Virus record (IMG/VR): IMGVR_UViG_3300025128_007994
Source of the DNA: a virus
Direction: 5' to 3' (one strand)
DNA: 64,000 bases
Part shown: in pieces, positions 13,190 through 29,811 of the stretch
Position numbering within the stretch: the stretch's first letter is position 1
How the letters are laid out: every line of letters starts with the position of its first letter
Notes under the pieces: model-generated
The model's database searches: none
What the model was told of the DNA's origin: nothing
What the model saw: only the letters and a program-made list of their open reading frames with translations
Program-made: the position numbers and the translations under genes

Positions 13190-14476
13190 ATGCAAAAGAA
13201 AAAGATTTTGGTTATTGCTGACCACCCACTTTCACCTTCTGGTGTTGGTACTCAAACAAAATACATGATTGAGGCCCTCCTCAAGACACAAAGATACAAG
13301 TTTGTCTGCCTAGGTGGCGCCATGAAGCACGCTGACTACAATGCCGTCAACGTAGAACCATATGGTACAGACTGGACAATCTACCCTGTCGATGGGTATG
13401 GTAATCATGAGATTATTAGATCGGTACTACAAAAAGAAAAGCCAGACTTGCTTTGGTTTATGACCGATCCTCGTTTTTACGAATGGTTGTGGGAGATTGA
13501 AAATGAGGTCCGCGCAAACTTGCCGATGGTATATTACCATGTGTGGGATAACTTTCCCGCGCCACACTTTAATGGAAAATGGTATCGGTCTAATGACCAC
13601 GTTGCATGCATTTCAAAAGTAACACATGAGATTGTCAAAGAGGTGGCACCGCAGGTCAAGTCTTCTTATATGCCACACGCCGTTAATCCAAGTATTTTTA
13701 AACCTTCGGTAACTTCTGAAGAAAAGATTGAAGTTACAAAAATAAGAGAAAATATTCTTGCCGCTTCAAAAGAAAAATTTGATAACCCTAAGAAGAAGAT
13801 ATTCTTTTGGAACAGCCGCAACGCTAGAAGAAAGCAAAGCGGCACACTTATTTGGTGGTTTAAGGAACTCTTAGATGAGGTGGGTCATGATAAGGCCGTA
13901 CTTCTGATGCATACAGACCCTAGAGACCCACACGGTCAGGACTTACCACACATAATTGAGCATCTGGGTGTTGCAGACGGACAAGTTTTGATTTCTTCTA
14001 ACAAGGTAGCCCCCGAGGGCTTAGCCGCAATGTATGGCGCATCTGATTTTACTATTGGTATTAGCGATGCAGAGGGCTTTGGCTTGTCGACTTTGGAATC
14101 ACTTAGTTGTGGTACTCCAATCATAGTCAATATGACAGGCGGCCTACAGGAGCAGGTAACAGACGGTAAAAATTGGTTTGGCTGGGGGATACAGCCGTGC
14201 AGCAAGGCAATTATTGGTTCGCTCCAAGTGCCTTACATCTATGAGGATCGTATATCACAAGAAGACTTTAACAAGGTTATGAAAAAGGCCCTTGCACTAT
14301 CTGGGCCTAAATACAAAAAAATGGCAGAGATGGGCCTACAACATGTTAAGGACAACTATAACTTTGAGGATTACGAAAAGAACTGGACCAGCCTTATTGA
14401 TGAAGTTATCGAAGAAAATGGCTCCTGGGAAACAAGAAAAAATTATGAACGTTGGAATCTAATGGAGGTTTTATAA
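13190..14476 (+). CDS. Glycosyltransferase, GT-B fold (GT4-like)
   Basis: SPSGVGTQ, RNARRKQSG and DAEGFGLSTLESLSCGTPII (EX7E motif). Confidence 0.9.
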   Translation: MQKKKILVIADHPLSPSGVGTQTKYMIEALLKTQRYKFVCLGGAMKHADYNAVNVEPYGTDWTIYPVDGYGNHEIIRSVLQKEKPDLLWFMTDPRFYEWLWEIENEVRANLPMVYYHVWDNFPAPHFNGKWYRSNDHVACISKVTHEIVKEVAPQVKSSYMPHAVNPSIFKPSVTSEEKIEVTKIRENILAASKEKFDNPKKKIFFWNSRNARRKQSGTLIWWFKELLDEVGHDKAVLLMHTDPRDPHGQDLPHIIEHLGVADGQVLISSNKVAPEGLAAMYGASDFTIGISDAEGFGLSTLESLSCGTPIIVNMTGGLQEQVTDGKNWFGWGIQPCSKAIIGSLQVPYIYEDRISQEDFNKVMKKALALSGPKYKKMAEMGLQHVKDNYNFEDYEKNWTSLIDEVIEENGSWETRKNYERWNLMEVL

Positions 14477-15723
14477 TGAAAAAAGTATTATTAAGGGGCC
14501 CCGTATTAACGCGCTCCGGCTATGGCGAACAAGCTCGATTTGCACTTAGAGCATTACGCAGCAGGGAAGACGTGTTTGACATCTATATCAACCCCATACA
14601 ATGGGGAGGAACTAGCTGGTTAAGCGACATTACAGAAGAGCGTACATGGATTGATCAAATTATTGAAAAAACCATTCACTATACCCAACACAGCGGCAAA
14701 TTTGATTACTCAGTACAGGTTACAATACCAAACGAGTTTGAAAAGCTCGCTGATGTCAATGTTGGCTATACCGCTGGAATAGAAACAACAAGAGTCTCTC
14801 ATGAATGGATTCATGAAGCAAATCAGATGGATCGAGTAATCGTTGTTTCAACGCACTCTCGCGATGTATTCGAAGATACTACCTACGACGCTCATTATGA
14901 ACAAACCGGTGAACAGTTTACCCTTAGAACAACCTCCCCAATCGCAGCAGTAAATTATCCTGTAAAAGAATATGAGGATATGAAACCATTAGCGCTTGAT
15001 TTGACAACGGAGAAAAACTTTGTATGTGTCGCGCAGATGGGCCCCCGAAAGAACCTTGACAATACAGTGGCCTGGTTCGTGGAAGAGTTTTTCAATGATG
15101 AAGACGTGGGCCTGATAGTCAAAACAAATTATGCTAAAAATAGTTTAGTTGACAAAGAGGTCTGCCATGGCCGTTTGTTGAATATTCTATCGACATATCC
15201 GGATAGAAAATGCAAGGTGTATCTTTTACACGGCGATATGACGGATAAAGAAATGCATGAGATCTACCTCCATCCTAAGGTGGTAGCTGCAGTTTCGTTT
15301 ACTCATGGTGAAGGCTTTGGCCTCCCTCTTTTTGAAGCAGCATATATGGGTATTCCTGTCGTAGCCACCGGTTGGTCCGGCCAGCTAGATTTTCTTTGCG
15401 ATAAATCTAGAAAAGAATATTTTTATAATGTATCTTTTGATATTCAACCCATTCCTGACAATGTAGTGTGGGATGGTGTTTTGATTAAAGATTCAATGTG
15501 GGCATATCCCCGAAAAGAATCAGCGCAAAAGCAGATGCGCGCATGTCTTAACGACATCAAGGACAATCAAGGCATCGATGCTCAAGAATATGCCAAACAA
15601 TTGAGAGAAAGATTTAGTGAAGAAAGTTTGTATAAAGATTTTATAAATGCAATGGGTATAACTGAAGACGATTTTGATGTTGAAAACTGGCTAGACAATT
15701 TAGGACTTGAAGAAATAGAGTAG
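14476..15723 (+). CDS. Glycosyltransferase, GT-B fold (GT4-like)
   Basis: TRSGYGEQAR, RKNLD and HGEGFGLPLFEAAYMGIPVVATGWSG; start at ATG 14476 (TAATG). Confidence 0.9.
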   Translation: MKKVLLRGPVLTRSGYGEQARFALRALRSREDVFDIYINPIQWGGTSWLSDITEERTWIDQIIEKTIHYTQHSGKFDYSVQVTIPNEFEKLADVNVGYTAGIETTRVSHEWIHEANQMDRVIVVSTHSRDVFEDTTYDAHYEQTGEQFTLRTTSPIAAVNYPVKEYEDMKPLALDLTTEKNFVCVAQMGPRKNLDNTVAWFVEEFFNDEDVGLIVKTNYAKNSLVDKEVCHGRLLNILSTYPDRKCKVYLLHGDMTDKEMHEIYLHPKVVAAVSFTHGEGFGLPLFEAAYMGIPVVATGWSGQLDFLCDKSRKEYFYNVSFDIQPIPDNVVWDGVLIKDSMWAYPRKESAQKQMRACLNDIKDNQGIDAQEYAKQLRERFSEESLYKDFINAMGITEDDFDVENWLDNLGLEEIE

Positions 15724-15731
15724 TGAGTTAG

Positions 15732-16568
15732 ATGAAAATAGTATTCATAGCCGACGCTTTTGCGGAACAAGTGCTTGGCGGCGGCGAACTAAATAACGAA
15801 GAATTACTCAAGATGTTGGCACAAGATGGCCACGACGTATTAAAAATTAATAGTCATAAAGTTACAATAGAGTTTATTGACAGACATATAGAATCGAAGT
15901 TTATCATTGCAAACTTTGCGAATCTAAAACCTGCCCTCAGGGATAAGATCTGTGACACAGTGTATATTATATACGAACACGATCATAAATATTTGAATAC
16001 AAGAAACCCGGGTGAGTATCCGGGATTTAAAGCACCGAAAGAAGAAATAGTCAATATAGAACTGTATAAAAATGCCCGAGCAGTTCTGTGTCAATCACAG
16101 TTTCATTTGGAAATAATAAAAATGAACACTGAGCTTGATAATCTGGTTAATTTAAGCGGTAATCTTTGGTCACTGCGCTCACTTGACTTAATGAAAGCAA
16201 TGGCTGAAAAGCCGAAGTCTGAGTGTTGCTCAATTATGCAATCAAACATTATACATAAAAACACCCGTGAGGCTATTATGTATTGTAAACATAAAAAAAT
16301 GCCGTATAAATTGGTTTCTAGTAAAAATTATGAGTCTTTTTTGGATCAGTTGAGTGAAAACAAAACTTTATTATTCTTACCAAAAACCCCGGAAACACTC
16401 TCACGAGTTGTAGTTGAAGCAAGAATGATGGGAATGAGCGTCATCGTTAATAAAATGATTGGAGCGACTCGGGAGCCTTGGTATGAACTAAAAGGCAAAG
16501 ATCTGATTGAATATATGCGCGTAAAAAGAAAAATGATAAAAGACGTAGTTTTGGAGGAGTTATCATGA
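15732..16568 (+). CDS. Glycosyltransferase-like protein (GT-B)
   Basis: GGGELNN N-terminus and PETLSRVVVEARMMGM (E-x7-E-like). Confidence 0.65.
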   Translation: MKIVFIADAFAEQVLGGGELNNEELLKMLAQDGHDVLKINSHKVTIEFIDRHIESKFIIANFANLKPALRDKICDTVYIIYEHDHKYLNTRNPGEYPGFKAPKEEIVNIELYKNARAVLCQSQFHLEIIKMNTELDNLVNLSGNLWSLRSLDLMKAMAEKPKSECCSIMQSNIIHKNTREAIMYCKHKKMPYKLVSSKNYESFLDQLSENKTLLFLPKTPETLSRVVVEARMMGMSVIVNKMIGATREPWYELKGKDLIEYMRVKRKMIKDVVLEELS

Positions 16569-17482
16569 AAATTTATATATGTGATTATGAAACACACGCC
16601 GGCAAATGGATCTATCAAGGATATCAAAAGGCCTGGAGTTCTCTTGGTTATAAGGTAGTTAAGTGCGGTCCGGGAACAGGGGCGCCGAACCCAGAACCCA
16701 ATGAAAAGTATATGGTGATGGTGACAGATTATGATATATCAGATAGAAATATTAATATTTTAGAAAATAGCCACAAGTCATTCTTATTTGTACAACCAAG
16801 CAGGTTCCCTGAGCCTTGGGCCGGCCACCCAAACTTTACGTCGCAACAAGCCCCACAAACAAGTAAAAAAATAAATCAAATGGATAATGTATATCCTTGG
16901 ACGTTCGCCAATACTTCCGGGAGCGATTTTTATCCTCTATGGGATGGGAAAATAAACACGATACCATTGGCCTTTGATTCAATAAGTTACAATCCCACTG
17001 AAGTGGATAAGTATAAACAGTTTGACATTAGTTTTGTGGGAGGTTGGGCTGACAACGGGTTTAATGAAAAAAGAAAGATAATGATGAAAACCTTTGCTGC
17101 GTTTAAGGACTCTGGCTTGAAGTGCGGGTTCTTCATAAATAAAAACCTTTCTCACCAGCAGGAATGTGATCTGTTAGCGAACAGTAAAATGACGATTAAT
17201 GTACACGACGCATATCAAAGAACACTCGGTACCGATACCAACGAAAGAACTTTTAAGTCGCTTGGCCTTAACGGCCTAATGATTTCAGATACAATTAAAC
17301 AGCTAAACGATATGTTCCCTAGTGTCCGGACAACCCTTGAGCCTTCTGAAATGGTCACTATTGCTAAAGAAGTTCTTTCACTTTCAGAAAGCGAAATTGG
17401 CAATATAAAAGAAGTTAATCGAGAAAACATTTTGAAAAATCATTGCTATGTTAACCGGGTTCGGACATTTCTAGACCTATGA
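16565..17482 (+). CDS. Glycosyltransferase (CgeB/Glyco_trans_1_2-like)
   Basis: DISFVGG, MTINVH, NERTFKSLGLNGLMISD and HCYVNRV. Confidence 0.7.
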   Translation: MKIYICDYETHAGKWIYQGYQKAWSSLGYKVVKCGPGTGAPNPEPNEKYMVMVTDYDISDRNINILENSHKSFLFVQPSRFPEPWAGHPNFTSQQAPQTSKKINQMDNVYPWTFANTSGSDFYPLWDGKINTIPLAFDSISYNPTEVDKYKQFDISFVGGWADNGFNEKRKIMMKTFAAFKDSGLKCGFFINKNLSHQQECDLLANSKMTINVHDAYQRTLGTDTNERTFKSLGLNGLMISDTIKQLNDMFPSVRTTLEPSEMVTIAKEVLSLSESEIGNIKEVNRENILKNHCYVNRVRTFLDL

Positions 17483-18384
17483 AGATAGTCCTTGTAACTA
17501 ACAAGACATACAGAGGCCACCTCGACGGCGGCTGGTGGTATTTTTATTTGCCATTGCTTGAAATGGGTCATGAAGTCTATTTTTTTGACACAGTAGATCC
17601 GGTTGAAAAAGATTTTAAGAAGGTAGTGGAAACGCTGAAGCCAGATTTAATATTTTGTATGTTAACCGGCGATTTTAATATTGCCCCTAGGGAGCCATGG
17701 TCCCAAATAAAACAAGAGACGGACAGCGGCCGCACAAGAACATTCAATTGGTTTTGTGATGATACTTGGAGATACTACGACTTCTCTAAAAAAGTATGCC
17801 AGTATTTCAATATATGTTCAACACCTGAGCCGGATTATATAAAGAAATATGAAAGAGCCGGCTATAGCAATATTGTTTTGGGTACCTGGCATTCCAACAT
17901 AAGTTTGTACCCAAAGTTAAGCTACCAAGATAAAGACATAGAAGTATCTTTTATTGGCGCCTTGAATGGCCTGCGGAAGAATTTCTTTGAACAGCACAAA
18001 GATCTACCAATTGACATTTTTTCTAATATTTCGCAAGAAGAGATGTATTTAACACACGCAAGAAGCAAAATAGCAATTAACTTAAGCATTAATGAAAATG
18101 ATCCGCAAAAGAAGACACAAATGAAACAAAGGATGTTTGAGATCCCCGCGGCCAAGACACTCCTGCTGACTGAACACCACCCAGGGATAGAGCATTTTTT
18201 TGAGATTGACAAAGAAATAATAACATTTAAGAGCAATAGGGAGTTTGAAGATAAGATTAAGTTTTTGAATTCTAAGCCTAAGATAGCAGAAGCAATCGCC
18301 CTCTCCGGCTTTAAAAGATATATCACAGAACATGAATCAAAGATCAGGCTCACCAAAGTGTTACAGCAGGTTATGGCCCTATAA
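17479..18384 (+). CDS. Glycosyltransferase (CgeB/Glyco_trans_1_2-like)
   Basis: NWFCDD, VSFIG, SKIAINLS, KQRMFEIPAAKTLLLTE and FFEIDKEII. Confidence 0.8.
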   Translation: MKIVLVTNKTYRGHLDGGWWYFYLPLLEMGHEVYFFDTVDPVEKDFKKVVETLKPDLIFCMLTGDFNIAPREPWSQIKQETDSGRTRTFNWFCDDTWRYYDFSKKVCQYFNICSTPEPDYIKKYERAGYSNIVLGTWHSNISLYPKLSYQDKDIEVSFIGALNGLRKNFFEQHKDLPIDIFSNISQEEMYLTHARSKIAINLSINENDPQKKTQMKQRMFEIPAAKTLLLTEHHPGIEHFFEIDKEIITFKSNREFEDKIKFLNSKPKIAEAIALSGFKRYITEHESKIRLTKVLQQVMAL

Positions 18385-18446: not shown

Positions 18447-19178
18447 ATGAAAATAGATATAATAATTCCGTGCTACAATGCAGAAAAGTGGATAGAGAAA
18501 AGCATTAAGAGTGCCTTATCACAAACATATAAGAACATTCAAGTCATTGTAATTGATAATGAAAGCAGCGACAACAGTTACAAAGTAATCCAAGAAGTCC
18601 ATGGCCACCATCCGGAAATAATCATAGGGACTGTACCCAATATTTATCCTTACGGCTGGACTGAGCCGGTGGAAAAAGCTCTAAGTCTTTGTAATGGTGA
18701 TTATTTCACCATCTTGGGCGCGGATGATTACATCGATCCCGAATACATTGAGAAAATTGTCAAGATAATATCGAAAGCCCCAGACAAAATAAAGATTTTA
18801 CAAAGCCCCCTCATAGGAATCGATTCTGACAAAGGCATAACTTTAGAGGAAATAAAACACTCATATAACAGCTTGGGCCAATTTAAACAAATGTTGTTTG
18901 AAAAGTGCCCAGTGACGACGCCCACAGTTGTATACAAGAGAGAACTTCATGATAGTGGTATATTACGATGGGACTCAGAAACTTGCTCTGGCGCAGCAGA
19001 TTATGATTTATATTTCAATATAGCAGACAACGGCATTTTCATATATCCTTATCCCAAGTGGATCGGATATTATTACCGATGGCACTCAGATCAGGCAACT
19101 TGGGGCATGCATAAACAAACAACAAAATATGATTTGCTAATAAAACAAAAATGGATGGAAAAGTGGAAGAATGGATAA
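18447..19178 (+). CDS. Glycosyltransferase family 2
   Basis: IIIPCYNAEKWI, VIVIDNESSD, LGADDYI and AADYDLY. Confidence 0.9.
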   Translation: MKIDIIIPCYNAEKWIEKSIKSALSQTYKNIQVIVIDNESSDNSYKVIQEVHGHHPEIIIGTVPNIYPYGWTEPVEKALSLCNGDYFTILGADDYIDPEYIEKIVKIISKAPDKIKILQSPLIGIDSDKGITLEEIKHSYNSLGQFKQMLFEKCPVTTPTVVYKRELHDSGILRWDSETCSGAADYDLYFNIADNGIFIYPYPKWIGYYYRWHSDQATWGMHKQTTKYDLLIKQKWMEKWKNG

Positions 19179-20955
19179 CAAAATAAGATTGGTCGACTAT
19201 ATCGCAGACAGAGTACACCAATTGGGAGTAAAACACGTTTACACTCTTACCGGTGGCGGCGCAATGTTCCTTAACGACTCTGTAAAGAAGCATGAAAAAC
19301 TGCTCTCTGTTTGCAATCACCACGAACAAGCGAGCGCCATGGCTGCTGTAGCACATGCTAAATATACTAATGGGTTTTCGGTGGTGATACCAACCACAGG
19401 TTGTGGCAGTACAAACTGTATTACCGGTCTATTAGATGCATGGCAGGATAACTTGCCCTGTATATTTATTTCAGGTCAGGTCAACAAAGACCAAACTTGC
19501 TTTAGTTCAACTGCGAATATTCGTCAGTTCGGAGTTCAAGAGGCAAACATTGTAGAAATAGTTAAATCAATCACAAAGTATGCAGTTATGGTTGAGGCTC
19601 CGGAGGACATCGCATATCACCTCGACAAGGCCTTTCACCTGGCTTCTACGGGACGCCGCGGCCCTGTCTGGATAGATGTCCCGCTGGACGTTCAAGGGGC
19701 CTTTATAAACCCCTCTGAGCTTAAAAGGTATATTCCCGACGACAAGACGCTTTCTCCCGATTTAAACAATCTTAGGGAAATGCTAGAAAAAGCCACTCGG
19801 CCCGTAATATTAGCAGGAAATGGCGTGAGGTTAGCCGGCGCCTCAAAAGAAATAAAAACGTTCGCTGAAAAGCACAACATCCCAGTAGTCACTACCTTTC
19901 TGTCAGCCGATTTGTTGCCATCGGAACATGAATTGAACATAGGCAGAGTTGGCATTAAGGGCAATCGAGCAGCAAACTTTGTAGTGCAAAATTCTGATTT
20001 CTTATTGTCGATTGGTTGTAGACTAAGCGTGCCCTCTACCGGCTACAAATATGAATACTTTGCGAGAGAGGCCAATATCGCAGTTGTGGATATAGATCCG
20101 GAAGAGCACAAAAAAGACACTATTAAAATTGACTTGTTTGTGGAAATGGATGCCAAAGACTTTATGCTGAAGTTTGAAACAGAATATCGCTCAACTCAAG
20201 CATGGATAGATACATGTTCGAAATGGAAATCTACATGGCCTGTCTTTTTGCCGGAACACGAAGACGATGAGGATGGTATTAGTATGTACCGATTCATGAA
20301 AACACTGTCTATAACACTTCCTGCAAATTCTAGCGTAGTCGGAGATGCTGGCTCTGCATATTATGTGCCGTGCCAGGCGCTTCAAATCAAAGACGGTCAA
20401 CGCCTGATTACACCTGGAGCCCAAGCAGAAATGGGCTTTACATTGCCGGCCTGTATTGGGCTGTCTTTTGCTATGGAGAATCCTTGCATAGCGGGGATTA
20501 CTGGCGACGGCTCTTTTCAGACAAACATACAGGAATTGCAAACTATTGTACAATATAATCTTCCGGTTAAGATATTTGTGTGGAACAATGATGGCTACCT
20601 TTCAATCAGAACCACACAGAGAAAGTATTTTGAAGATCGATTCGTGGGTACTGACAAAGATAGCGGGGTCTCATTTCCCGATACTCAAAAAATTGCGGCC
20701 GCATATGGGATAAAATACTTTTCTATGTCAAACAATATGGAGCTTGATGCCCAAATGCAGGAGATAATAGATTTTGATGGTCCCGTTATTTGTGAAGTGA
20801 TGTGTAAAAAGTGGGACAAAGTACTGCCCACAATCGGTGCAAAAAAATTAGATAGCGGACAATTAGTATCCCAACCACTAGAAAACATGTTTCCTTTCTT
20901 GACAGAAGAGGAATTACGTGTTAATATGTTAGTACATTCAATAGAGGAGAAATAA
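19171..20955 (+). CDS. Thiamine-diphosphate-dependent enzyme, acetolactate-synthase-like (YerE-type subfamily found in O-antigen loci)
   Basis: GGGAMFLND, HHEQA, ISGQV, RQFGVQE, GPVWIDVPLDVQ and ThDP motif GDGSFQTN...WNNDGY. Confidence 0.85.
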   Translation: MDNKIRLVDYIADRVHQLGVKHVYTLTGGGAMFLNDSVKKHEKLLSVCNHHEQASAMAAVAHAKYTNGFSVVIPTTGCGSTNCITGLLDAWQDNLPCIFISGQVNKDQTCFSSTANIRQFGVQEANIVEIVKSITKYAVMVEAPEDIAYHLDKAFHLASTGRRGPVWIDVPLDVQGAFINPSELKRYIPDDKTLSPDLNNLREMLEKATRPVILAGNGVRLAGASKEIKTFAEKHNIPVVTTFLSADLLPSEHELNIGRVGIKGNRAANFVVQNSDFLLSIGCRLSVPSTGYKYEYFAREANIAVVDIDPEEHKKDTIKIDLFVEMDAKDFMLKFETEYRSTQAWIDTCSKWKSTWPVFLPEHEDDEDGISMYRFMKTLSITLPANSSVVGDAGSAYYVPCQALQIKDGQRLITPGAQAEMGFTLPACIGLSFAMENPCIAGITGDGSFQTNIQELQTIVQYNLPVKIFVWNNDGYLSIRTTQRKYFEDRFVGTDKDSGVSFPDTQKIAAAYGIKYFSMSNNMELDAQMQEIIDFDGPVICEVMCKKWDKVLPTIGAKKLDSGQLVSQPLENMFPFLTEEELRVNMLVHSIEEK

Positions 20956-20956
20956 C

Positions 20957-21889
20957 ATGAGTGCAAATGATAAAAACAAAGTTACAATTTTAAGATTACG
21001 TCGACAAAAGAGAGAAAAAACACCAACAGTGATAACCACTGCTTATGACTACCCACAAGCAAGAATCGCTGATGGTGCGGGTGTAGACTGCATTTTGGTG
21101 GGTGATTCATTAGGGATGACCACTCTAGGATACAAGACTACAATCCCCGTAACAATGGATGATATGATTAGACACTCTGAGGCAGTTTCCAAAGGCGCCA
21201 AGAATGCGTTCTTGATCGGAGATATGCCTTATATGTCTTACCAAGTATCCAACGAAGAAGCGGTGCGAAATGCAGGCCGCTTTGTTATTGCCGGCATGGA
21301 TTGTGTAAAGGTTGAGGGCGCTATGATTGAGCGCATTAAGGCCATCGCGGATTCCGGCATCATGGTGATGAGCCACCTGGGCCTCACTCCTCACACTAGA
21401 GCGAAGCTCGGGGGTTATCGAGTTCAAGGTAAAACAGCCAAACAAACGGAGATTATCCTACAACAGGCCCTTGATTTGCAAGAGGCTGGTTGCTCTTTTC
21501 TACTGCTAGAGGGCATGCCACGCGAGTCTGCTGAAATTATTGCCAAAGAACTTAAGATCCCTGTTTATGGGATTGGCGCTGGTGATAAGGTAGATGGTCA
21601 ATTGGTAATCTTTCATGACTTGATGGGCCTCTTTTGGGAGTTCAAATCTAAGTTTGTTAAGAGGTATTGTGAAGCTGGCCAAATTATGCAGAATGCCCTG
21701 AAGGAATATGCAGCCGAAGTTCGGTCTGGGAACTTCCCGGCAGAAGAAAACTTTTACGCCATCAAAGAAGAAGAGCTAGAGAGACTTCTCGGCGGAGGCA
21801 ACTGGAAGCACGATCAAGTATTGTATGAGACAGACCAAGGGTTTCCCACTAACCATAGTGCAACACCAAACACGGTAACTAAGAAGTAA
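20957..21889 (+). CDS. panB: Ketopantoate hydroxymethyltransferase (PanB)-like enzyme
   Basis: TAYDY, LVGDSLG, GDMPY, VKVEG, HLGLTP, GGYRVQG and GIGAG...DGQ..HD; has a C-terminal extension of about 40 aa. Confidence 0.88.
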   Translation: MSANDKNKVTILRLRRQKREKTPTVITTAYDYPQARIADGAGVDCILVGDSLGMTTLGYKTTIPVTMDDMIRHSEAVSKGAKNAFLIGDMPYMSYQVSNEEAVRNAGRFVIAGMDCVKVEGAMIERIKAIADSGIMVMSHLGLTPHTRAKLGGYRVQGKTAKQTEIILQQALDLQEAGCSFLLLEGMPRESAEIIAKELKIPVYGIGAGDKVDGQLVIFHDLMGLFWEFKSKFVKRYCEAGQIMQNALKEYAAEVRSGNFPAEENFYAIKEEELERLLGGGNWKHDQVLYETDQGFPTNHSATPNTVTKK

Positions 21890-21909
21890 TAGCCCGGAGC
21901 ACCATCTAG

Positions 21910-22761
21910 ATGAATATCTTATTAACAGGTGGTAATGGGTTTCTTGCGAAAGAGCTAAAGCACTATTTTCTAAATAACACAGCCTTGGATTGCAAACTCC
22001 TTGTAACCGACAGAACTACCCTTAACGTCACCGATTACGAGAGCGTTAGGGGTTTTTTTGAGAACAATGTAGTAGACGTTGTCATACATACCGCGGTAAA
22101 AGGTGGCAAACGATTAGATACGCAGACGGTTGATGACATTATCGATAATATCTTGATGTTCAAAAACTTGAGTTATTTTTCTGATCAGTTTAAAATAATG
22201 TTCAATTTTGGATCCGGCGCAGAGTTTAATCGCATGAACTCTATTGATTGTGCGACTGAAGAATCGGTGAGTGCATCATTACCTACCGATTATTATGGAT
22301 TATCTAAGAATATTATCGCCCGAAAAATAGCAAAAATGAATAGTAATATTTATAACTTACGCTTATTTGGGTGTTTTGGGCAACACGAAGAACCGCAAAG
22401 ATTGTTTCGCTCTTGTTATAACAATTTCAAACTAAATCAAAGCGCGCTAATAACATGTGACAGGTACATGGACTATTTTTACGCTCAAGACGTAGGCCGA
22501 GTAATCGAGCATATTATCGAAAAACATGATATGAGTCTGCCAAGAGACATAAATCTATGTTACTCAGAGAAACACACCTTGAGCGAACACGCACAGGTGA
22601 TTAAAGATTTGACAAACGCAAAGTCGCAGGTTATAATAGAACAGAAAGAATTGGGCAAATCCTATACGGGTAAGGCACACGTGCTCGATTCGCTAAACAT
22701 TGACCTGATGGGTCTGAATAAAGGAGTAAAAGAATGTCTGAAAAGTTGGAACAAATTATAG
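21910..22761 (+). CDS. NAD-dependent sugar epimerase/reductase (extended SDR)
   Basis: TGGNGFLA Rossmann motif, YGLSK (YxxxK) and LRLFGCFG. Confidence 0.85.
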   Translation: MNILLTGGNGFLAKELKHYFLNNTALDCKLLVTDRTTLNVTDYESVRGFFENNVVDVVIHTAVKGGKRLDTQTVDDIIDNILMFKNLSYFSDQFKIMFNFGSGAEFNRMNSIDCATEESVSASLPTDYYGLSKNIIARKIAKMNSNIYNLRLFGCFGQHEEPQRLFRSCYNNFKLNQSALITCDRYMDYFYAQDVGRVIEHIIEKHDMSLPRDINLCYSEKHTLSEHAQVIKDLTNAKSQVIIEQKELGKSYTGKAHVLDSLNIDLMGLNKGVKECLKSWNKL

Positions 22762-24071
22762 AGTTGGTGTCTGATTACATTTCTGAGAAGCACGAAAATG
22801 AAACGTGGACCCCTGGCGAAGACTGGGTAGCATACTCGGGCCCGGTTTTTGATGAAAAAGAATACATCGCCGCTGTACGCCAAATACTAGATGGTTGGAT
22901 GATTTTTGGCAAGAACGCAAGAGAGTTTGAGTTAAAGTTTCCGTCTAAGCTTGGAAAACTCTACGGATCCTTAACTAACTCAGGTTCATCGGCAAACTTG
23001 CTGATGGTAGCCGCTACTAAATCGCGACGATTCCCAAAACAATTAAAGGACGGAGACAAGATTATTACCCCAGTTGTTTGTTTTCCGACAACCATTAATC
23101 CTATTATACAAAACAACCTTGTACCAGTGTTTGTAGACGTTGAGCTTCCAAGTGTAAACTTGGACCTGGATAGAGTAGAAGAAGTCCTTGAGAGCGACCC
23201 TGACATTAAGGGGATAATGTTTGCACACGTGTTGGGTAACCCGCCTGACATGGACAGATTGATGGCTCTCGTAGAAAAATACGATTTGGTATTTCTAGAA
23301 GATGCATGCGATGCTTTGGGATCTTACTACGACGGTAAGAAGTTGGGCTCCTATGGAGACATGTCAACATGCTCTTTCTTCCCAGCCCACCATATGACGA
23401 TGGGAGAGGGAGGTTTCATTGCAACTAACAGTCAGAAGACACGTACGGCATTGGCTAGTATCCGAGACTGGGGGCGCGCTTGTTACTGCAACTCAATGAA
23501 ACCAGGCAACGTCACAAGCGAAACAGCGTGTGGTAACAGATTTAAAAACTGGTTGCCCGGCCTCAAAGATGCTGTGTACGATCACCGCTATGTTTTCGAT
23601 GAAATAGGTTACAACCTTAAACCACTAGATTTGCAGGCTGCAATGGGCCTACAGCAGCTTGAAAAACTTCCAATGTTAGATGCTGCTCGGAGAGAAAACT
23701 GGGCCAAGCTACGGGCCATATTTGAGCCTTATGCACAATACTTTCATATGCCGGAGGCTACCGAAAAGTCAGACCCGTGTTGGTTTGCCTTTCTGTTGAC
23801 AATCAAGGAAGGTGCCCCTTTCTCTCGTTCGGATATAGTAAACCATCTTGAGGGTCTTAAAATTCAAACACGTTCTTACTTCTCAGGCAACATCTTGGCT
23901 CACCCGGGCTACGTTCACCTTGCTGAAGAATATGGTGATATGTATGAAACCTTCCCTAACGCCCAATTGATTACGACAAACTCGTTCTTTTTAGGAACCT
24001 ATGTAGGCCTCACCGGCGAGAAACTTGAATATATTAAGGAAGCAGTTGATGGCTTCTTTGAGAATTTGTAA
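22734..24071 (+). CDS. rfbH: NDP-4-keto-6-deoxyhexose 3-dehydrase (RfbH/DdhC, E1; PMP and 2Fe-2S)
   Basis: NSGSSANLL, EDACDALG and SFFPAHHMTMGEGG (His replaces the PLP Lys); Cys cluster RDWGRACYC...CGNRF; YDHRY and GYNLKP. Confidence 0.9.
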   Translation: MSEKLEQIIELVSDYISEKHENETWTPGEDWVAYSGPVFDEKEYIAAVRQILDGWMIFGKNAREFELKFPSKLGKLYGSLTNSGSSANLLMVAATKSRRFPKQLKDGDKIITPVVCFPTTINPIIQNNLVPVFVDVELPSVNLDLDRVEEVLESDPDIKGIMFAHVLGNPPDMDRLMALVEKYDLVFLEDACDALGSYYDGKKLGSYGDMSTCSFFPAHHMTMGEGGFIATNSQKTRTALASIRDWGRACYCNSMKPGNVTSETACGNRFKNWLPGLKDAVYDHRYVFDEIGYNLKPLDLQAAMGLQQLEKLPMLDAARRENWAKLRAIFEPYAQYFHMPEATEKSDPCWFAFLLTIKEGAPFSRSDIVNHLEGLKIQTRSYFSGNILAHPGYVHLAEEYGDMYETFPNAQLITTNSFFLGTYVGLTGEKLEYIKEAVDGFFENL

Positions 24072-25021
24072 TGAAACTCGTTTATGTCACCGGCTGCCTG
24101 GGGTTTATTGGCTCGTATGTAACACGTAAATGCCTTGACAGGGGCTGGAAAGTGTATGGAGTAGACAAGTGCACGTATGTAGCCAACACTTCACTGCTAA
24201 AAAGCTTCGAAGCTAACCCCAACTTTACTTTCATCAAAGAGGATATAAAAGATCTTCAGCATCTGTATGACTGTGATTACGTTATTAATACGGCCGCAGA
24301 ATCTCATGTAGGAAATAGCATCATTGATTCGCAAGAGTTTATTGATAGTAACATTGTGGGTGTTCGCAACTTGTTGGACTTGATTCGCAACAAGCCCGTC
24401 AATTGCAATAGACGGCCGGTATTTTTTCACTTCAGCACTGACGAAGTATATGGGGATATTGAAAGCGGTGAACATACAGAACAAGATATTTTACACCCAA
24501 GCAATCCATATTCAGCGGCAAAAGCTTGTTCTGATATGCTTATCTTAGCGTGGGCCCGAACATATGGCGTCGAGTACATTCTGCTACGTCCAACCAATAA
24601 CTATGGAATAGGGCAGTACCCAGAGAAACTGATACCACTTTCTGTAAAGAATCTAATGCGAAATAGAAAGATTAGACTTCATAACGCCGGAACGCCAGTG
24701 AGAAACTGGTTGCATGCTGATGATACAGCAGAAGCTGTTATGACCATCATAGACTCAGGTAACACGAACGAAATCTATAATGTTGCCGGCGGCTTTGAGC
24801 AAAAGAACATAGATACAATATTAAAAGTTATTGACAACTTCTTTGAAGAAGATTATAATTGGGAAGAACATGTTGATTTTTCTTATTCTCGCGAAGGTCA
24901 AGATGTACGATATGCCTTGAACGATGACAAACTACGGGCCCTAGGTTGGACCGCCAAAAGAGACTTTAACAAAGAAATTTACGATATTGTTCAATATTAT
25001 AAAAAGAATTTCATATGGTAG
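24071..25021 (+). CDS. rfbB: dTDP-glucose 4,6-dehydratase-like
   Basis: TGCLGFIGS, AAESHV, STDEVYG, PYSAAKA, NNYG..QYPEKLIP and RNWLHADD. Confidence 0.9.
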   Translation: MKLVYVTGCLGFIGSYVTRKCLDRGWKVYGVDKCTYVANTSLLKSFEANPNFTFIKEDIKDLQHLYDCDYVINTAAESHVGNSIIDSQEFIDSNIVGVRNLLDLIRNKPVNCNRRPVFFHFSTDEVYGDIESGEHTEQDILHPSNPYSAAKACSDMLILAWARTYGVEYILLRPTNNYGIGQYPEKLIPLSVKNLMRNRKIRLHNAGTPVRNWLHADDTAEAVMTIIDSGNTNEIYNVAGGFEQKNIDTILKVIDNFFEEDYNWEEHVDFSYSREGQDVRYALNDDKLRALGWTAKRDFNKEIYDIVQYYKKNFIW

Positions 25022-25024
25022 AAT

Positions 25025-26020
25025 ATGATACACACAGGAGTAGAAAGAATGCCCAAATGGTATGAACCCACTAGCGATAATATTATTGGTATTCCCCTCG
25101 CCGAAAACGCTCCGGAATGGCAATGCTCATCTGGGACCCCCGAATTGCAACTAGCTGATCTTGGCCGACGAGCGGATTACCTTGTAAGCGAGTTTAAGGA
25201 TTACGTGAAAGACCCAGAGTTGGAAAAATTGATTTCAGGAAAGCGCTTGGCATTCATTGGGCCCGCTCCAAGTTTAGATGGCCTGGGTCTTGGTGAATTG
25301 TTCGACTCATATGATTTGGTAGTTCGCATCAATACTGCCTATCACATGCCAGAGCAGCTTTGGGAAGACTACGGGAAGAGGACAGATATACTAGTAAACT
25401 GCTTAAACTTTAACAAAATCAGAGCTTTGCAAGAAAACATGGACTTCACAAAATCTGTGAAGTATCTTATACAGCCACAGCTTTCAATGTGGGACATCAA
25501 AAAAGCCGAAAAGATTATCCACGAATGGGGCGCCCCATTTCATAACGTGTGTGATGGTTATTTGTTTAAGGTTAACAAGGAAATAGGCACAACCACTAAC
25601 ACTGGTTTGCTGGGGGTGATAACTCTCTTGAACTATAATATAAAAGAGTTGTATATTGGAGGATTCACCTTTTTTGATATGGGTTCAAAGAGTGGAGAAT
25701 ACTACAACAAAGCACACCTCTCTCAAACAATCAAATATGACCCAGTTCAAGTAGTTGATAATAAACTCACCAGCGCCTCGTTAAGGTTAGATGACCTGCA
25801 CTTGCAGGAGCCTCAAATATTGTATTTTGGTAAAATATTGCGAAAATATTATGGAACCAAGATCCAGGTGGATGAGTATCTAAGACAAAATTTCAATTTA
25901 TGGATAGACGGCGCCGTCGACGGCATCTCTGATAAAGGCGTTAAAAAACTTTTTCAACTTGATAGACAATTAAAACTAAACAACAATTTAACCATTTGTA
26001 AATGGGAAGGAAAAATATAA
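25025..26020 (+). CDS. GT29-like sialyltransferase
   Basis: Sialylmotif-L-like LAFIGPAPSL..GLGELFDSYDLVVRIN...DYGKRTD; sialylmotif-S-like TNTGLLG...LYIGGFTFF. Confidence 0.7.
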   Translation: MIHTGVERMPKWYEPTSDNIIGIPLAENAPEWQCSSGTPELQLADLGRRADYLVSEFKDYVKDPELEKLISGKRLAFIGPAPSLDGLGLGELFDSYDLVVRINTAYHMPEQLWEDYGKRTDILVNCLNFNKIRALQENMDFTKSVKYLIQPQLSMWDIKKAEKIIHEWGAPFHNVCDGYLFKVNKEIGTTTNTGLLGVITLLNYNIKELYIGGFTFFDMGSKSGEYYNKAHLSQTIKYDPVQVVDNKLTSASLRLDDLHLQEPQILYFGKILRKYYGTKIQVDEYLRQNFNLWIDGAVDGISDKGVKKLFQLDRQLKLNNNLTICKWEGKI

Positions 26021-27156
26021 TGAAAGTAGTAGCAATGATACCTGCCCGTTTTGGCAGCAAAAGAATCCCAAAAAAGAATATACGCTTGTTAAATGGAATC
26101 CCATTGATAAGTTATATTATTAGAGCCGCCAAAGAGGCAAAATGCTTCGATGAAATATACGTTAACTCAGAGTCAGATATTTTGGGAGAGATTGCAGAAA
26201 AAGAAGGCGTAAGTTTTTATAAACGCCCCGCGGAACTTTCAACCGACAGCGCAACAAACGATGAGTTCACACAAGACTTTATGAACAATGTAGAGTGTGA
26301 TGTATTGGTACAACTTTTACCTACATCACCGTTCATAAAAGCACGCGACATACTAAAATTTACCGCCACTATGCTCGGCACGGAGGCCGACACACTTGTA
26401 TCAGTTACCGATCAACAGATAGAGTGCATATATAATCGACAGCCAGTCAACTTTGACCAAAAGAAGATCTCCCCACCGTCGCAGGATGTGACGCCGGTAC
26501 AACCTTATGCATGCGGCATGATGGGTTGGAAAACCTCCAACTATCTTGCGAATATGGATAAGTACAATTGTGGTTATCACGGTGGTGACGGCGATATACA
26601 CTTCTATACTGTTTCGGGCTTTGCGACAGTTGACGTTGACAACGAAGAAGATTTTCAATTAGCGGAAGTAATTGCCCGAGCAATATCAAAAGAAGCATAT
26701 GCACCTCAATTTTATGGCGAAACGCATTCGGAAGTTGATGTTCCTTCAATCTTGCTTAAGGACGGAGTTAAAAATAATAATTTACATGACACCAACAAAG
26801 AAATAGTCAATATCAACGAGATACGTTCTTCGTTCAAGTCAACAAAGTCGTGGAGTCACCGAGTTGTAAATACGGAAAACAACAGCGCGACCTTGATCCA
26901 CCAACAGCCGGGCCAAGGAAATCGAAGGCACTATCACCCAGATTGGAACGAGTGGTGGTATATCGTCGATGGAGAGTGGGAGTGGGAAATCGACGGAGTT
27001 AAGAAAATTGTCAAAAAAGATGATATTGTTTTTATACCCAAGGGTATAATACACAGAATAGAGGCCACCGGTGACAAGCCTGCAATTCGCCTAGCTATCA
27101 GCCGGGAAGATGTGGCACATGTATATCCAGATGGAGAGCATACAAATGAAAGATAA
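26020..27156 (+). CDS. CMP-ulosonic acid synthetase (NeuA/KdsB-like cytidylyltransferase) fused to a C-terminal cupin
   Basis: IPARFGSKRIPKKN, VNSES, YKRP, PTSPF and VDVDNEEDF; cupin HYHPDWNEWWYIVDG...FIPKGIIHRI. Confidence 0.88.
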   Translation: MKVVAMIPARFGSKRIPKKNIRLLNGIPLISYIIRAAKEAKCFDEIYVNSESDILGEIAEKEGVSFYKRPAELSTDSATNDEFTQDFMNNVECDVLVQLLPTSPFIKARDILKFTATMLGTEADTLVSVTDQQIECIYNRQPVNFDQKKISPPSQDVTPVQPYACGMMGWKTSNYLANMDKYNCGYHGGDGDIHFYTVSGFATVDVDNEEDFQLAEVIARAISKEAYAPQFYGETHSEVDVPSILLKDGVKNNNLHDTNKEIVNINEIRSSFKSTKSWSHRVVNTENNSATLIHQQPGQGNRRHYHPDWNEWWYIVDGEWEWEIDGVKKIVKKDDIVFIPKGIIHRIEATGDKPAIRLAISREDVAHVYPDGEHTNER

Positions 27157-28045
27157 TGTACTTTTGAATGAAACAATGTTTGTCATAGGTTCGGGCCCGA
27201 GCTTGAACGCTATCGATATCAAAAAATTAGAGGGTCTTCATACTATTTCCTTGAATCGGCAGTATATTGCCTATGAAGACTGGGGCTTTTGGCCAAAATA
27301 CCACGCTTGTATCGATATACGATTGATAAATACTATTTACGAATCAGATCTTCTTCCAATGATGTTAAGCCCGGAATGCGAAATTGAGAGATTTTTCATC
27401 TATGGCTGCAGCAATCTTGAAGTCCCGGAGGACGTCGCTGCACACTATAACATTCAAGCAGGGGCGCTTCCGGAAAAGCTCATATGGATACCGGCGGTTG
27501 GTAGTACATTCCGGACCCCCGCTCAGCGCACCAAGACTATTCCGAAGCTAGAAACATGCTATGTAGACCCAGAGCTAGCGCGGGAAAGACTGAGCACACA
27601 TCTTCGGGATCCAAATGATCCGTATTCATGCTTAGAGCACTTTGGTATCTCCGGAGCCTGGTCAGTAACATTAGCTCGCAGCTTGGGGTATAAAAGAGTT
27701 GTCGTCTTGGGCATCGATGCCAACTACGTTCCCCGTGTCGAATCAATTAGTGCTGGAAGAGACCTCAACCACTTTCACAAAAATTATTTTGATGTAGATA
27801 CTTTTGTATATCAAGTTAACTTCGGGCCGGCCACCGGCTACTTAGAACCATGGAAAATAATGGCCACCGGCACTGGCCTCAATGACCAGCCCGTTTCTTG
27901 CGGATCGCCAGATGCGGCCCATGTTTGCGCCGATGAGACCATTGAGGTAATTTCATCTTCGCCAGGCTCACCTATTAATGAGTGGTTTGAATATATTGAT
28001 TTTAATAAATTGTTGGAAAGCTATGAGGCAGAAGATGAATATTGA
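27146..28045 (+). CDS. DUF115/MAF_flag10-like protein (possible ulosonate transferase)
   Basis: FVIGSGPSLN, ISLNR, SGAWSVTLARSLGYKRVVVLGID and NHFHKNYF; start at ATG 27146. Confidence 0.6.
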   Translation: MKDNVLLNETMFVIGSGPSLNAIDIKKLEGLHTISLNRQYIAYEDWGFWPKYHACIDIRLINTIYESDLLPMMLSPECEIERFFIYGCSNLEVPEDVAAHYNIQAGALPEKLIWIPAVGSTFRTPAQRTKTIPKLETCYVDPELARERLSTHLRDPNDPYSCLEHFGISGAWSVTLARSLGYKRVVVLGIDANYVPRVESISAGRDLNHFHKNYFDVDTFVYQVNFGPATGYLEPWKIMATGTGLNDQPVSCGSPDAAHVCADETIEVISSSPGSPINEWFEYIDFNKLLESYEAEDEY

Positions 28046-28757
28046 TTTTGCAAACCAAAATGTGCTGGTAACTGGTGGTACCCGCGGAATAGGTAATCAA
28101 ATTGCAAACGATTTCGCCAATTTAGGTGCACACGTTTTGATTACTGGCACGAAAAAACCAAAACAAAAGATACACCAAAACATACAATTTGTTTCTGCGA
28201 ATTTTCTGGATAACACTTCAACCGAAAACTTTATTAAAGAGATCTCTGAACAAACATTTGATGTCTGCGTTAACAATGCTGGCATTAACAAGATTGATCC
28301 ACTCTGCGAGGTCAAAGAGCAAGACTGGAATGACGTAATGAAAGTCAACCTCACAGCACCATTTTTGATACAGCAGGCTGTATGCAAGAACATGCTCAAC
28401 CAGAGCTACGGAAAGATAGTCAATATCTCCTCTATATGGGGCACAGTCAGCATTCCGCACCGCGCCAGTTACTCTGCCAGCAAGTTCGGTCTACGAGGCC
28501 TCACGGCAGCCTCAGCGGCCGAACTGGCTCAACATAACATTTTGATCAACACTGTCTCGCCGGGGTTCACATTAACTGACCTGACCAAACAAATCTTGGG
28601 TGAACAGGGTATTGAAGACTTGACAAAACAGATTCCAATGCGACGAATGGCTGAGGTGGATGAAATATCGAGAGTTGTACTGTTCATGTGCAGCAAACTC
28701 AATACATATATTTCTGGCCAGAATATCATTGTAGACGGCGGATTTGTAAATGTGTGA
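28035..28757 (+). CDS. Classical SDR oxidoreductase (FabG-like)
   Basis: VLVTGGTRGIG, VNNAG, YSASK and NIIVDGG; start at ATG 28035. Confidence 0.92.
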   Translation: MNIDFANQNVLVTGGTRGIGNQIANDFANLGAHVLITGTKKPKQKIHQNIQFVSANFLDNTSTENFIKEISEQTFDVCVNNAGINKIDPLCEVKEQDWNDVMKVNLTAPFLIQQAVCKNMLNQSYGKIVNISSIWGTVSIPHRASYSASKFGLRGLTAASAAELAQHNILINTVSPGFTLTDLTKQILGEQGIEDLTKQIPMRRMAEVDEISRVVLFMCSKLNTYISGQNIIVDGGFVNV

Positions 28758-29811
28758 CATCGAAACTATTGAAATTAAATCTTATAGAAGAAAATATAAA
28801 GTTATGTTTCAACAACTGTCGGAGAGCCTAGTTGAGAATGTTAAGGAAAAGTCTTTTTTGATAATCGATTCAAACGTAGACAAATACTTTCCCCTGTTTC
28901 GTTCAAGATTTGATGAACACAACATATTTGTTGTCGAAGCAAATGAACAAAATAAGACCTTGCAAACCTGCACGGCCCTTGTCGAAAGACTTGTATCCCA
29001 GGGTTTTAAAAGAAATCATAAACTTATTGCTGTGGGCGGCGGTGTTGTCCAAGACATAACAGCGTTTACAGCATCAGTTCTATATCGTGGTGTTGAATGG
29101 AGATTCTTTCCCACGACTCTGTTGGCTCAAGCAGATAGCTGCATAGGCAGCAAGACATCCATCAACTTGGGCGAAACAAAGAACTTATTAGGCACGTTTT
29201 ATCCACCAGCGGAGATCTATTGTTGCCCTGAGTTTTTAGAAACGTTGCATGAGGACGACATCAAATCTGGCATCGGCGAGATATTCCATTATTATTTAAC
29301 AGCAGATAGCAACATGTCGAAAGAACTAGCAGAATCGTATGAATCGGTCATTAAACATCCGGCCCTCCGCTGCGCCAAGCACATTAGAGAAAGCCTCTCC
29401 ATTAAAAAGAGAATGATTGAAAAGGATGAGTTTGATGAAGGCGAGAGAAAGATATTCAATTACGGTCACACTTTTGGTCACGCTATAGAAGCGATTAGTA
29501 GATACGAAGTAAGTCATGGCAATGCTGTTACATTAGGAATGGATATTGCTAACTATATTTCGTTGAAAAAAGGACTTATAGAGCAGGCCACATACGAACA
29601 CCTGTTCGGGATGATTAAAAAAAATATACCAGACTATCGTTTAACCGAAGATAGGCTTCAAGACTATTTTACTTTTTTGTCAAAAGACAAGAAGAACATT
29701 GACAATTCTTTAGTTTGTATATTACCATATGGGATCGGAGACATGAGAACAACTGCAATAGATGATATTGACAGTGTAAAAGATATAATAAGAGAGTATT
29801 TTAACAAATGA
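28750..29811 (+). CDS. AroB-related sugar-phosphate cyclase (DHQ synthase superfamily)
   Basis: GGGVVQDITAF, PTTLLAQADSCIGSKTSIN, KNLLGTF, NYGHTFGHAIE, HGNAV and DKK. The QDIT/SCIGSKT variant differs from canonical GDxxGF/SSVGGKT. Confidence 0.85.
   Translation: MCDIETIEIKSYRRKYKVMFQQLSESLVENVKEKSFLIIDSNVDKYFPLFRSRFDEHNIFVVEANEQNKTLQTCTALVERLVSQGFKRNHKLIAVGGGVVQDITAFTASVLYRGVEWRFFPTTLLAQADSCIGSKTSINLGETKNLLGTFYPPAEIYCCPEFLETLHEDDIKSGIGEIFHYYLTADSNMSKELAESYESVIKHPALRCAKHIRESLSIKKRMIEKDEFDEGERKIFNYGHTFGHAIEAISRYEVSHGNAVTLGMDIANYISLKKGLIEQATYEHLFGMIKKNIPDYRLTEDRLQDYFTFLSKDKKNIDNSLVCILPYGIGDMRTTAIDDIDSVKDIIREYFNK

Follow-up and report, generated by a model that had tools for sequence, protein, structure and literature searches.

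The five-gene cassette considered here lies at positions 19171–25021 of a 64,000-nucleotide stretch of viral DNA (IMG/VR record IMGVR_UViG_3300025128_007994), the whole of which is referred to below as the window. It encodes a thiamin diphosphate (ThDP)-dependent enzyme, a member of the PanB hydroxymethyltransferase family, a short-chain dehydrogenase/reductase (SDR), an RfbH-type 3-dehydrase and a nucleoside diphosphate (NDP)-glucose 4,6-dehydratase (Table 1). An earlier note, made from the sequence alone, had proposed that these genes direct the formation of a C4-branched 3,6-dideoxy sugar; the five open reading frames (ORFs) are present as it described them and their family assignments were confirmed with Pfam and NCBIfam. 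Neighbouring genes overlap or are at most 20 nt apart. The single base that the note had placed between the first two genes is also there, with the TAA stop of the ThDP gene at 20953–20955, the ATG of PanB at 20957 and the sequence GAGGAG just upstream of this ATG. The same gene set is found again in dozens of independent viral contigs, and hence the arrangement is not due to chance.

The window belongs to a phage. All of its genes lie on one strand, and profile scans detect PhoH, a PD-(D/E)XK nuclease, a UvdE-like endonuclease and baseplate hub and wedge genes. ARAGORN predicts a tmRNA with the tag ANNNNHFESVRLAA, two tRNA-Asn(GTT) and one tRNA-Gly(GCC), at 3492–3827 and 6904–7682. Related IMG/VR contigs of up to 186 kb (CheckV 100%) encode a T4-type Gp23 capsid protein. 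A megablast search with the 5.85-kb cassette stretch against deposited phage genomes gave no match.

Table 1. Genes of the cassette and the glycosyltransferase-like genes that precede it, with positions in the window
Feature	Position	Strand	Family and structure matches
YerE/JanthE-like ThDP carboligase, 594 aa	19171..20955	+	three ThDP domains; best PDB match 8rph
PanB-family hydroxymethyltransferase, 310 aa	20957..21889	+	PF02548 332 bits, profile positions 1-259
Extended SDR, 283 aa	21910..22761	+	PF01370 and N-terminus of RmlD_sub_bind
E1-type RfbH (RfbH/DdhC-like pyridoxamine phosphate/[2Fe-2S] 3-dehydrase), 445 aa	22734..24071	+	NF011936 473.6 bits (cut-off 423, exceeded)
RmlB-like NDP-glucose 4,6-dehydratase, 316 aa	24071..25021	+	TIGR01181 295.5 bits
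GT2 glycosyltransferase	18447..19178	+	PF00535 5.6e-26; 3' end overlaps start of ThDP gene by 8 nt
Five glycosyltransferase-like genes upstream of cassette	13190..18384	+	two GT4, one without Pfam match, two Glyco_trans_1_2

The enzymes of the cassette

The best match of the ThDP enzyme in the PDB is 8rph, at 432.6 bits and with residues 2–586 aligned, followed by 5ahk, which we take to be PpYerE, at 236 bits and then by plant acetohydroxyacid synthases (AHAS) at about 224 bits or less. The 8rph structure is that of JanthE from Janthinobacterium sp. HH01, a YerE-like, ketone-accepting carboligase with a broad range of 2-oxoacid donors (PMC12188165), and a 2018 paper by Hampel on PpYerE is among the works cited by PMC12247030. 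The phage enzyme has a canonical GDG motif (GDGSF...NN) and the activating Glu (HHEQ), both of which align with their JanthE equivalents, although the motif in JanthE itself reads CDG. It falls under every acetolactate synthase cut-off (363.7 bits against the 538 required by TIGR00118). Two further ThDP subtypes, which are about 32% identical, adjoin PanB in related phages, and all three subtypes rank the PDB entries in the same order by bit score, with JanthE at the top, PpYerE second and AHAS behind. Judged by bit scores and cut-offs, the ThDP enzyme is thus YerE-like and probably not an acetolactate synthase. Its close database relatives are all unnamed metagenome proteins, so that their names give no identity.

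PanB lies over both of the curated cut-offs for its family (288.7 bits against 207.6 for TIGR00222, and 320.6 against 272 for NF001452). It aligns with the Escherichia coli enzyme (1m3u) at 198 bits and is about 48% identical to it by tblastn. PanBs of this kind are compact proteins of 265–330 residues that match only the PanB family model and carry no extra domain. The residues D45/S46, D84, K112, E114, H136 and E181 (E. coli numbering, as used throughout) are reported to be strictly conserved in ketopantoate hydroxymethyltransferases (KPHMTs) and to lie near the keto-acid pocket (PMC13488298). All of them are retained in the window PanB, and they are 100% conserved in the viral clade described below, apart from S46, which is Thr in a minor subclade.

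The earlier note had drawn attention to an altered active-site loop. This loop reads SHLGLTPHTRAK (residues 139–150), where E. coli has GHLGLTPQS, and the change of Gln142 to His within TPQS (Q142H) is real. It is restricted to the main viral subclade and does not extend to all ThDP-linked PanBs, as Gln142 is still present in the minor viral subclade and in the clade's bacterial members. Other substitutions are more widespread. Relative to housekeeping PanBs, V179 is replaced by Leu in 100% of the ThDP-linked clade, V/I212 by Leu in 93–100%, V214 by Ile in 86–100% and I200 by Tyr in 53–100%, and P132 gives way to Met, Val or Leu; the window PanB carries the signature residues L179, L212, I214 and Y200. 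Positions 202, 212 and 214 set the nucleophile and electrophile scope of engineered E. coli KPHMT, an enzyme that is also a folate-independent aldolase for a large number of 2-oxoacids (PMC7610986, PMC7611260). The clade-wide changes, at or near such positions, are to side chains of equal or greater bulk, which hints at a substrate smaller than ketoisovalerate, a signal too weak to decide the matter.

A full-length alignment of RfbH with E1 (3bcx/3bb8) scores 347 bits. Both features that the earlier note had recognised are borne out by this alignment, since the Schiff-base Lys of the aminotransferases is replaced (AHH) and a Cys stands at each of the four E1 cluster positions, with a last spacer of 13 residues as opposed to 7 in E1. 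The E1 cluster motif is presumably C-X57-C-X-C-X7-C. In related phages (L002–L081) three His-type DegT variants accompany the PanB–ThDP pair, with the motifs PAHH, F[GA]H[QH] and ASH[VI]. The PAHH form is E1-like and has the Cys ligands; the other two are about 30% identical to E1 and may be ColD-like 3-dehydrases with no need of a reductase.

The 4,6-dehydratase is RmlB-like and yet below the cut-off of the dTDP-type model TIGR01181, as its score falls short of the 365.1 bits required; the CDP-glucose type model TIGR02622 gives 73.6 bits. The resemblance to RmlB suggests dTDP-glucose as the host sugar nucleotide that would be used. Homologues of the dehydratase (58–73% identity) lie inside the flanks fetched for about half of the PanB loci. 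The SDR has a YxxxK motif and shares 29% identity (E 1e-29) with the one that sits between the aldolase and RfbH in a cassette of Campylobacter concisus. A homologue comes after PanB in most of the phage loci and in a bacterial one (L091), and the protein is a candidate for a YerF-like reductase of the branch carbonyl.

A Pfam scan of every ORF of at least 100 aa between positions 53 and 36259 of the window found no PanC, PanE or IlvC/D, no FNR-type/Fer2 (E3-type) reductase and no NDP-hexose nucleotidyltransferase. Nucleotidyltransferase, E3-type reductase (PF00175) and PanC were likewise not found when four related phage records were searched, of which two are at least 90% complete. Both absences listed in the earlier note, that of the pantothenate and branched-chain genes panC, panE and ilvC/D and that of an E3 reductase, are thereby upheld for positions 53–36259. 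As neither E3 nor the nucleotidyltransferase was found, host NDP-glucose and host electron carriers would have to serve. General ferredoxin or flavodoxin reductases serve E1 homologues such as SpnQ.

Linkage of PanB to the ThDP enzyme

A scan of IMG/VR seeded with PanB yielded 80 loci at 54–97% identity. All but two of these, 78 in number, have a ThDP gene no more than 6 kb from PanB, nearly always directly beside it and in either order; in the remaining two the locus is truncated by the end of the contig. Of the 80, 68 also contain a gene of the DegT family in which His stands in for the Schiff-base Lys, the 3-dehydrase type. When the ThDP enzyme was used as the seed, PanB was adjacent and an SDR came next in all 22 of the viral loci that had at least 49% identity and downstream sequence. 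Downstream of more distant viral ThDP homologues there is an HpcH aldolase (L201), FabG and/or an AroB-like gene (L203, L204) or no recognised gene. In three further phages (L183, L186, L210) the ThDP enzyme is 62–68% identical and the PanB beside it is at 46–48% identity, which indicates that the PanB partner has been swapped within the phage lineage.

A full HMMER search for PanB in 1.84 billion representatives gave one cluster at 57% identity; the others listed, two short fragments aside, were at 54% or less. In an IQ-TREE phylogeny of 108 PanBs, 32 form a clade with UFBoot 98 and SH-aLRT 88. This clade consists of all the viral PanBs, two bacterial PanBs that adjoin JanthE-like genes (L090, Bryobacteraceae, and L091, Falkowbacteria) and 13 metagenome representatives. 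Genomic context was examined for 12 metagenome PanB representatives. A ThDP gene is directly adjacent in six of the seven that fall within the clade (P0243, P0260, P0288, P0261, P0247 and P0267) and in none of four outside it (P0245, P0253, P0248 and P0282), nor does E. coli panB have such a neighbour. The P0243 locus is of a bacterial polysaccharide type, with a flippase, GT2, 4,6-dehydratase, nucleotidyltransferase, DegT, ThDP, PanB, SDR and glycosyltransferases.

The Bryobacteraceae genome contains two PanBs. One is beside panC and groups with the housekeeping PanBs in the tree; the ThDP-linked one is 2.2 Mb away. A metagenome-assembled genome (MAG) of the candidate phyla radiation (CPR) has only the ThDP-linked PanB, and panC was not found in this MAG, for which no completeness is given. 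Nor was panC found in related phage genomes estimated to be 90–100% complete, and in the loci checked PanBs of the clade are never beside panC or panE. Because it forms a separate clade, coexists with a panB–panC pair in one genome and occurs in a CPR MAG and in phages where panC was not found, the ThDP-linked PanB is, as far as phylogeny and gene content tell, not a pantothenate enzyme as commonly understood. This agrees with the view of the earlier note that the gene has been repurposed, and the phylogeny that it had called for does place the sugar-cluster PanBs in a clade of their own that travels with the ThDP enzyme and the His-type 3-dehydrase. At one metagenome locus (L172, with P0261) the PanB–ThDP pair is followed by unknown proteins, an AMP-binding enzyme of 678 aa and a protein of 75 aa, with no sugar genes within 8 kb, and the pair may also feed non-glycan pathways.

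The position taken by PanB is that of an aldolase in related bacterial cassettes. The closest homologue of the ThDP enzyme from a cultured bacterium (54%) is that of Thiomicrorhabdus arctica, whose cassette comprises a nucleotidyltransferase, dehydratase, RfbH, DmpF-like protein, DmpG-like aldolase, SDR, ThDP enzyme and a further SDR, and the Campylobacter concisus cassette comprises a ThDP enzyme, HAD protein, HpcH aldolase, SDR and RfbH. For a wider view, the genes within 6 kb of the ThDP gene were recorded at 80 cellular loci with JanthE-like enzymes. RfbH is present at 55 of these, an HpcH aldolase at 33, an AroB-like protein at 10, an aldolase of the DmpG type at six and PanB at two. No pyruvate aldolase of the HpcH, DmpG or citrate-lyase type was found in the window scan or in the 78 PanB phage loci, where PanB is in that position. 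By its place beside the ThDP gene PanB occupies the aldolase slot, so that it would act on a free 2-oxoacid before the ThDP step.

FabG and AroB-like proteins were also considered as partners of the ThDP enzyme. The association is real in some bacterial loci, but in the PanB phage loci AroB-like proteins were not detected and FabG-like matches were weak and distant, and the idea was set aside for these phages. The FabG and AroB-like pair directly adjoins JanthE-like ThDP genes in about 10 of the 80 cellular loci; the pair or the AroB-like gene is seen in L104, L106, L109, L111, L125, L142, L144, L145, L153–L155, L203 and L204. Two phage loci have the AroB-like gene, with FabG too in L204. In the window itself positions 27978–29811, 7 kb downstream of the cassette, encode an FabG-like SDR and a sugar-phosphate cyclase related to AroB (TIGR04425, 423 bits, cut-off exceeded). 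FabG and the AroB-like protein may represent a second partner module for YerE-like enzymes, perhaps one that provides a cyclitol ketone acceptor or a donor precursor.

A proposed route to a branched 3,6-dideoxyhexose

The closest known systems are the gene clusters for erwiniose, caryophyllose and gastriose (ErwI/ErwJ–ErwE–ErwF, MMAR_2331/2332 and MygI/MyGE/MygF, respectively). In erwiniose formation the cluster aldolase ErwI, together with ErwJ, first makes 4-hydroxy-2-oxopentanoate, an order that was shown experimentally, and the YerE-like enzyme ErwE then joins this compound to a keto-sugar analogue; ErwE also takes 4-hydroxy-2-oxobutanoate but refuses pyruvate, and ErwF reduces the branch (PMC9306805). 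Steitz et al. (2022) extended the scheme to caryophyllose and gastriose as a 'unifying scheme' for acyl-branched sugars (PMC9306805). The Thiomicrorhabdus arctica cassette, with its DmpF/DmpG pair, is of the ErwJ/ErwI type.

On the basis of sequence, gene linkage and this comparison, the phage cassette is probably the core of a pathway to an acyl- or hydroxyalkyl-branched 3,6-dideoxyhexose, organised on the lines of the erwiniose and caryophyllose scheme, in which pathway PanB would make the donor acid. Family membership, conserved catalytic residues, gene linkage and the separate PanB clade are seen directly, and from these all the steps of the pathway are inferred. The RmlB-like dehydratase and the E1-type RfbH would convert host NDP-glucose into an NDP-4-keto-3,6-dideoxyhexose, with electrons for RfbH supplied by the ferredoxin or flavodoxin systems of the host. 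PanB would take a free 2-oxoacid of the host (pyruvate, 2-oxobutyrate or 2-oxoisovalerate) and attach a C1 hydroxymethyl group, from methylene-tetrahydrofolate or free aldehyde, at its C3 to give a 4-hydroxy-2-oxoacid. The JanthE/YerE-like enzyme would decarboxylate this acid and join the resulting acyl anion to the sugar at its C4 ketone, after which the SDR would reduce the branch carbonyl and the neighbouring glycosyltransferases would attach the branched sugar to a target. With pyruvate as the substrate of PanB the reduced branch would be 1,3-dihydroxypropyl, a C3 branch, and with 2-oxoisovalerate it would be 1,3-dihydroxy-2,2-dimethylpropyl.

The proposal shares with the unifying scheme a cluster-encoded enzyme that makes a 4-hydroxy-2-oxoacid, YerE-like coupling to the product of a dehydratase and E1, and, with the SDR as its candidate here, an NAD(P)H reductase as the last step. 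It differs in that the donor maker is a hydroxymethyltransferase of the PanB family, which adds C1, and not a pyruvate aldolase; the dehydratase is RmlB-like and not of the CDP-glucose type; the nucleotidyltransferase and E3 are missing from the scanned part of the window (53–36259); and the carrier is a T4-like marine phage and not a bacterium. The yersiniose A pathway of Yersinia pseudotuberculosis (DdhA–D, YerE and YerF) likewise combines a 4,6-dehydratase, E1, a ThDP carboligase and a reductase. There YerE takes pyruvate directly and needs no donor-making enzyme, unlike what is proposed here. Moreover, the window enzyme is nearer to JanthE than to PpYerE (433 against 236 bits) and E3 (DdhD) was not found in the scanned part of the window. 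JanthE, the best solved relative, over a full-length alignment, accepts long, branched and 4-hydroxy 2-oxoacid donors as well as ketone acceptors (PMC12188165). In comparison with housekeeping PanB (EC 2.1.2.11), the fold, the family and the metal and acid–base residues are held in common, whereas the window PanB belongs to a clade apart that is nearly always beside a YerE-like gene and has V179L, V/I212L, V214I and I200Y, with Q142H added in the main viral subclade.

The general frame put forward in the earlier note, a yersiniose-type route to a C-branched 3,6-dideoxyhexose, is supported by the occurrence of a YerE-like ThDP enzyme with E1 and a 4,6-dehydratase in one operon. The order of steps is another matter. 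The note had the ThDP enzyme add a pyruvate-derived acetyl branch, the methyl group of which PanB would then hydroxymethylate to give a C3 branch. This would agree with the order of the two genes in the window, and chelation of the metal by an alpha-hydroxy ketone is conceivable. Such an order is distinctly unlikely, though, because the PanB site is intact, with D45, S46, D84, K112, E114, H136 and E181 near the keto-acid pocket all retained (PMC13488298), in a compact protein of 265–330 aa that has no sugar-nucleotide-binding or other added domain; because the genes often stand the other way round, PanB then ThDP, as in about 29 viral loci and several metagenome loci; and because the pair occurs with no E1 gene in the stretch of sequence covered around it at L169 and L172. 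Free-pyruvate aldolases hold the same slot in homologous cassettes, and the aldolase-first order of erwiniose rests on experiment (PMC9306805). It is thus most likely, from sequence and by analogy, that PanB comes ahead of the ThDP enzyme and produces the donor acid. The C3 branch foreseen by the note would still arise, and the end product would be the same, if the free substrate of PanB is pyruvate; what would fall away is the action of PanB on a sugar-bound acetyl group.

A free small molecule, such as a 3-hydroxy-aldehyde, acid or acyloin that arises by decarboxylation of the PanB product, is also an unlikely outcome of the joint action of PanB and the ThDP enzyme; it would serve as an O- or N-linked glycan substituent or enter another pathway, with no C–C branch being formed on the sugar. 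The pair has unknown small proteins and an AMP-binding enzyme as neighbours in L172, it lies in a lipopolysaccharide-core-like context with no E1 in L169, and the subtype of the ThDP partner varies while PanB is conserved, all of which would suit this explanation. Yet every one of the partner ThDP enzymes falls with the ketone-accepting YerE-like enzymes, the His-type 3-dehydrase that accompanies the pair in 68 of the 80 phage loci is the maker of the 4-keto acceptor used by such enzymes, and in phages the pair is not accompanied by any conserved acyltransferase or ligase. An auxiliary metabolic role, in which an acetolactate synthase and a true KPHMT would boost valine, pantothenate and coenzyme A formation in the host, has in its favour that PanB passes the curated equivalog thresholds for panB and shares about 48% identity with the E. 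coli enzyme, and a marine virome study reads viral pantoate transferase in this way, as a pantothenate auxiliary metabolic gene (AMG) (PMC8940887). This role is nevertheless very improbable. The ThDP enzyme is below all the acetolactate synthase cut-offs and nearest to JanthE and YerE, and the ThDP–PanB genes are inside a glycan operon, where they overlap GT2 and are followed by the SDR, E1 and dehydratase. panC was found neither in the window (53–36259) nor in the related phage genomes that are 90–100% complete, the PanB clade stands apart from the housekeeping PanBs, coexists with panB–panC and is present in a CPR MAG in which panC was not found, and the scope-controlling positions are changed across the clade.

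Several observations count against the favoured donor-first pathway. The viral loci of the PanB-seeded scan were chosen through PanB, and only the ThDP-seeded scan removes this bias, which it does for the close ThDP subtype alone. One member of the clade (P0244) has no ThDP neighbour, and P0275, whose place in the tree is just beyond the clade, has an RfbH-like gene after it, so that the boundary of the clade is not sharp. The dehydratase is of the dTDP type, whereas the characterised E1 enzymes of the unifying scheme use CDP-sugars. Finally, the SDR shows only weak similarity to its counterparts in some other cassettes (L085, L166), which makes the SDR step uncertain.

No publication that links PanB to branched sugars was found, although a published survey of more than 200 YerE-like clusters may mention neighbours of the PanB type. 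In a marine virome study 'pantoate transferase' was the most abundant vitamin AMG and was read as a means of pantothenate supply (PMC8940887). The present comparison suggests that this ocean-virus 'pantothenate' gene is probably a sugar-pathway gene. For a broader claim the chances appear evenly balanced, namely that the ThDP-linked PanBs have an enzyme function of their own, as dedicated 4-hydroxy-2-oxoacid synthases in the branching of sugars, that abundant T4-like marine phages make an undescribed 4-C-(1,3-dihydroxypropyl) or 4-C-(1,3-dihydroxy-2,2-dimethylpropyl) 3,6-dideoxyhexose, which would be placed on virions or on the infected cell, and that the 'pantoate transferase / vitamin B5' AMG of ocean viromes has been misassigned. 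If true, the PanB family would gain a second physiological role, a C1-extending donor route would join the aldolase-fed scheme for branched sugars, with new sugar structures predicted, and a gene counted as a pantothenate/coenzyme A AMG in marine viromes (PMC8940887) would become a glycan-pathway gene. What T4-like phages glycosylate, and why, would become a concrete question, given a glycan island of about 21 kb by the baseplate genes in phages that recur in many ocean metagenomes. The PanB and ThDP enzymes would also be candidate biocatalysts to make tertiary alcohols from simple keto acids.

The surrounding glycan island

The island that contains the cassette extends from 13190 to 34569, and baseplate genes start right after it. 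The five glycosyltransferase-like genes upstream of the cassette are co-conserved with it in many related phages; GT4a, GT4b and the gene with no Pfam match are found again upstream of PanB in L002–L025 and in further loci. The GT2 gene keeps its position directly upstream of the ThDP gene in the type-1 phage loci and is probably a transferase that belongs to the glycan island.

A second sugar module follows the cassette at 25025–31583. It encodes a GT29-like transferase, a fusion of a CMP-ulosonate-type cytidylyltransferase with a cupin, an unknown protein, FabG, an AroB-like cyclase, a class III aminotransferase and an SIS protein, with no synthase of the NeuB/KdsA type. Other phage loci do not conserve it together with PanB. 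The idea that PanB acts on a 2-keto-3-deoxy-ulosonic acid had come from the CMP-transferase and GT29-like genes; as these are not conserved with PanB elsewhere, it was rejected. A separate GDP-deoxyhexose route is indicated at 4781–6064 and 32643–34569 by a eukaryote-type phosphomannomutase (PF03332), a small cytidylyltransferase-like protein, a GDP-mannose 4,6-dehydratase and an epimerase/reductase.

Among GenBank phages the sole apparent PanB match by tblastn was in Microcystis phage MaAM05 (L001, MW495066.1, 251372–273876), where the neighbourhood looks bacterial, and the match was discarded. The end of this record carries panB, panC, sufBCDS, iscU, guaD and pxpA, and resembles a bacterial chromosome and not a phage.

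Two giant ORFs, at 38733–45377 (2214 aa) and 49195–60537 (3780 aa), flank the baseplate wedge genes of the window. Both are candidates for fibre or decoration proteins and may be what the glycan island targets.

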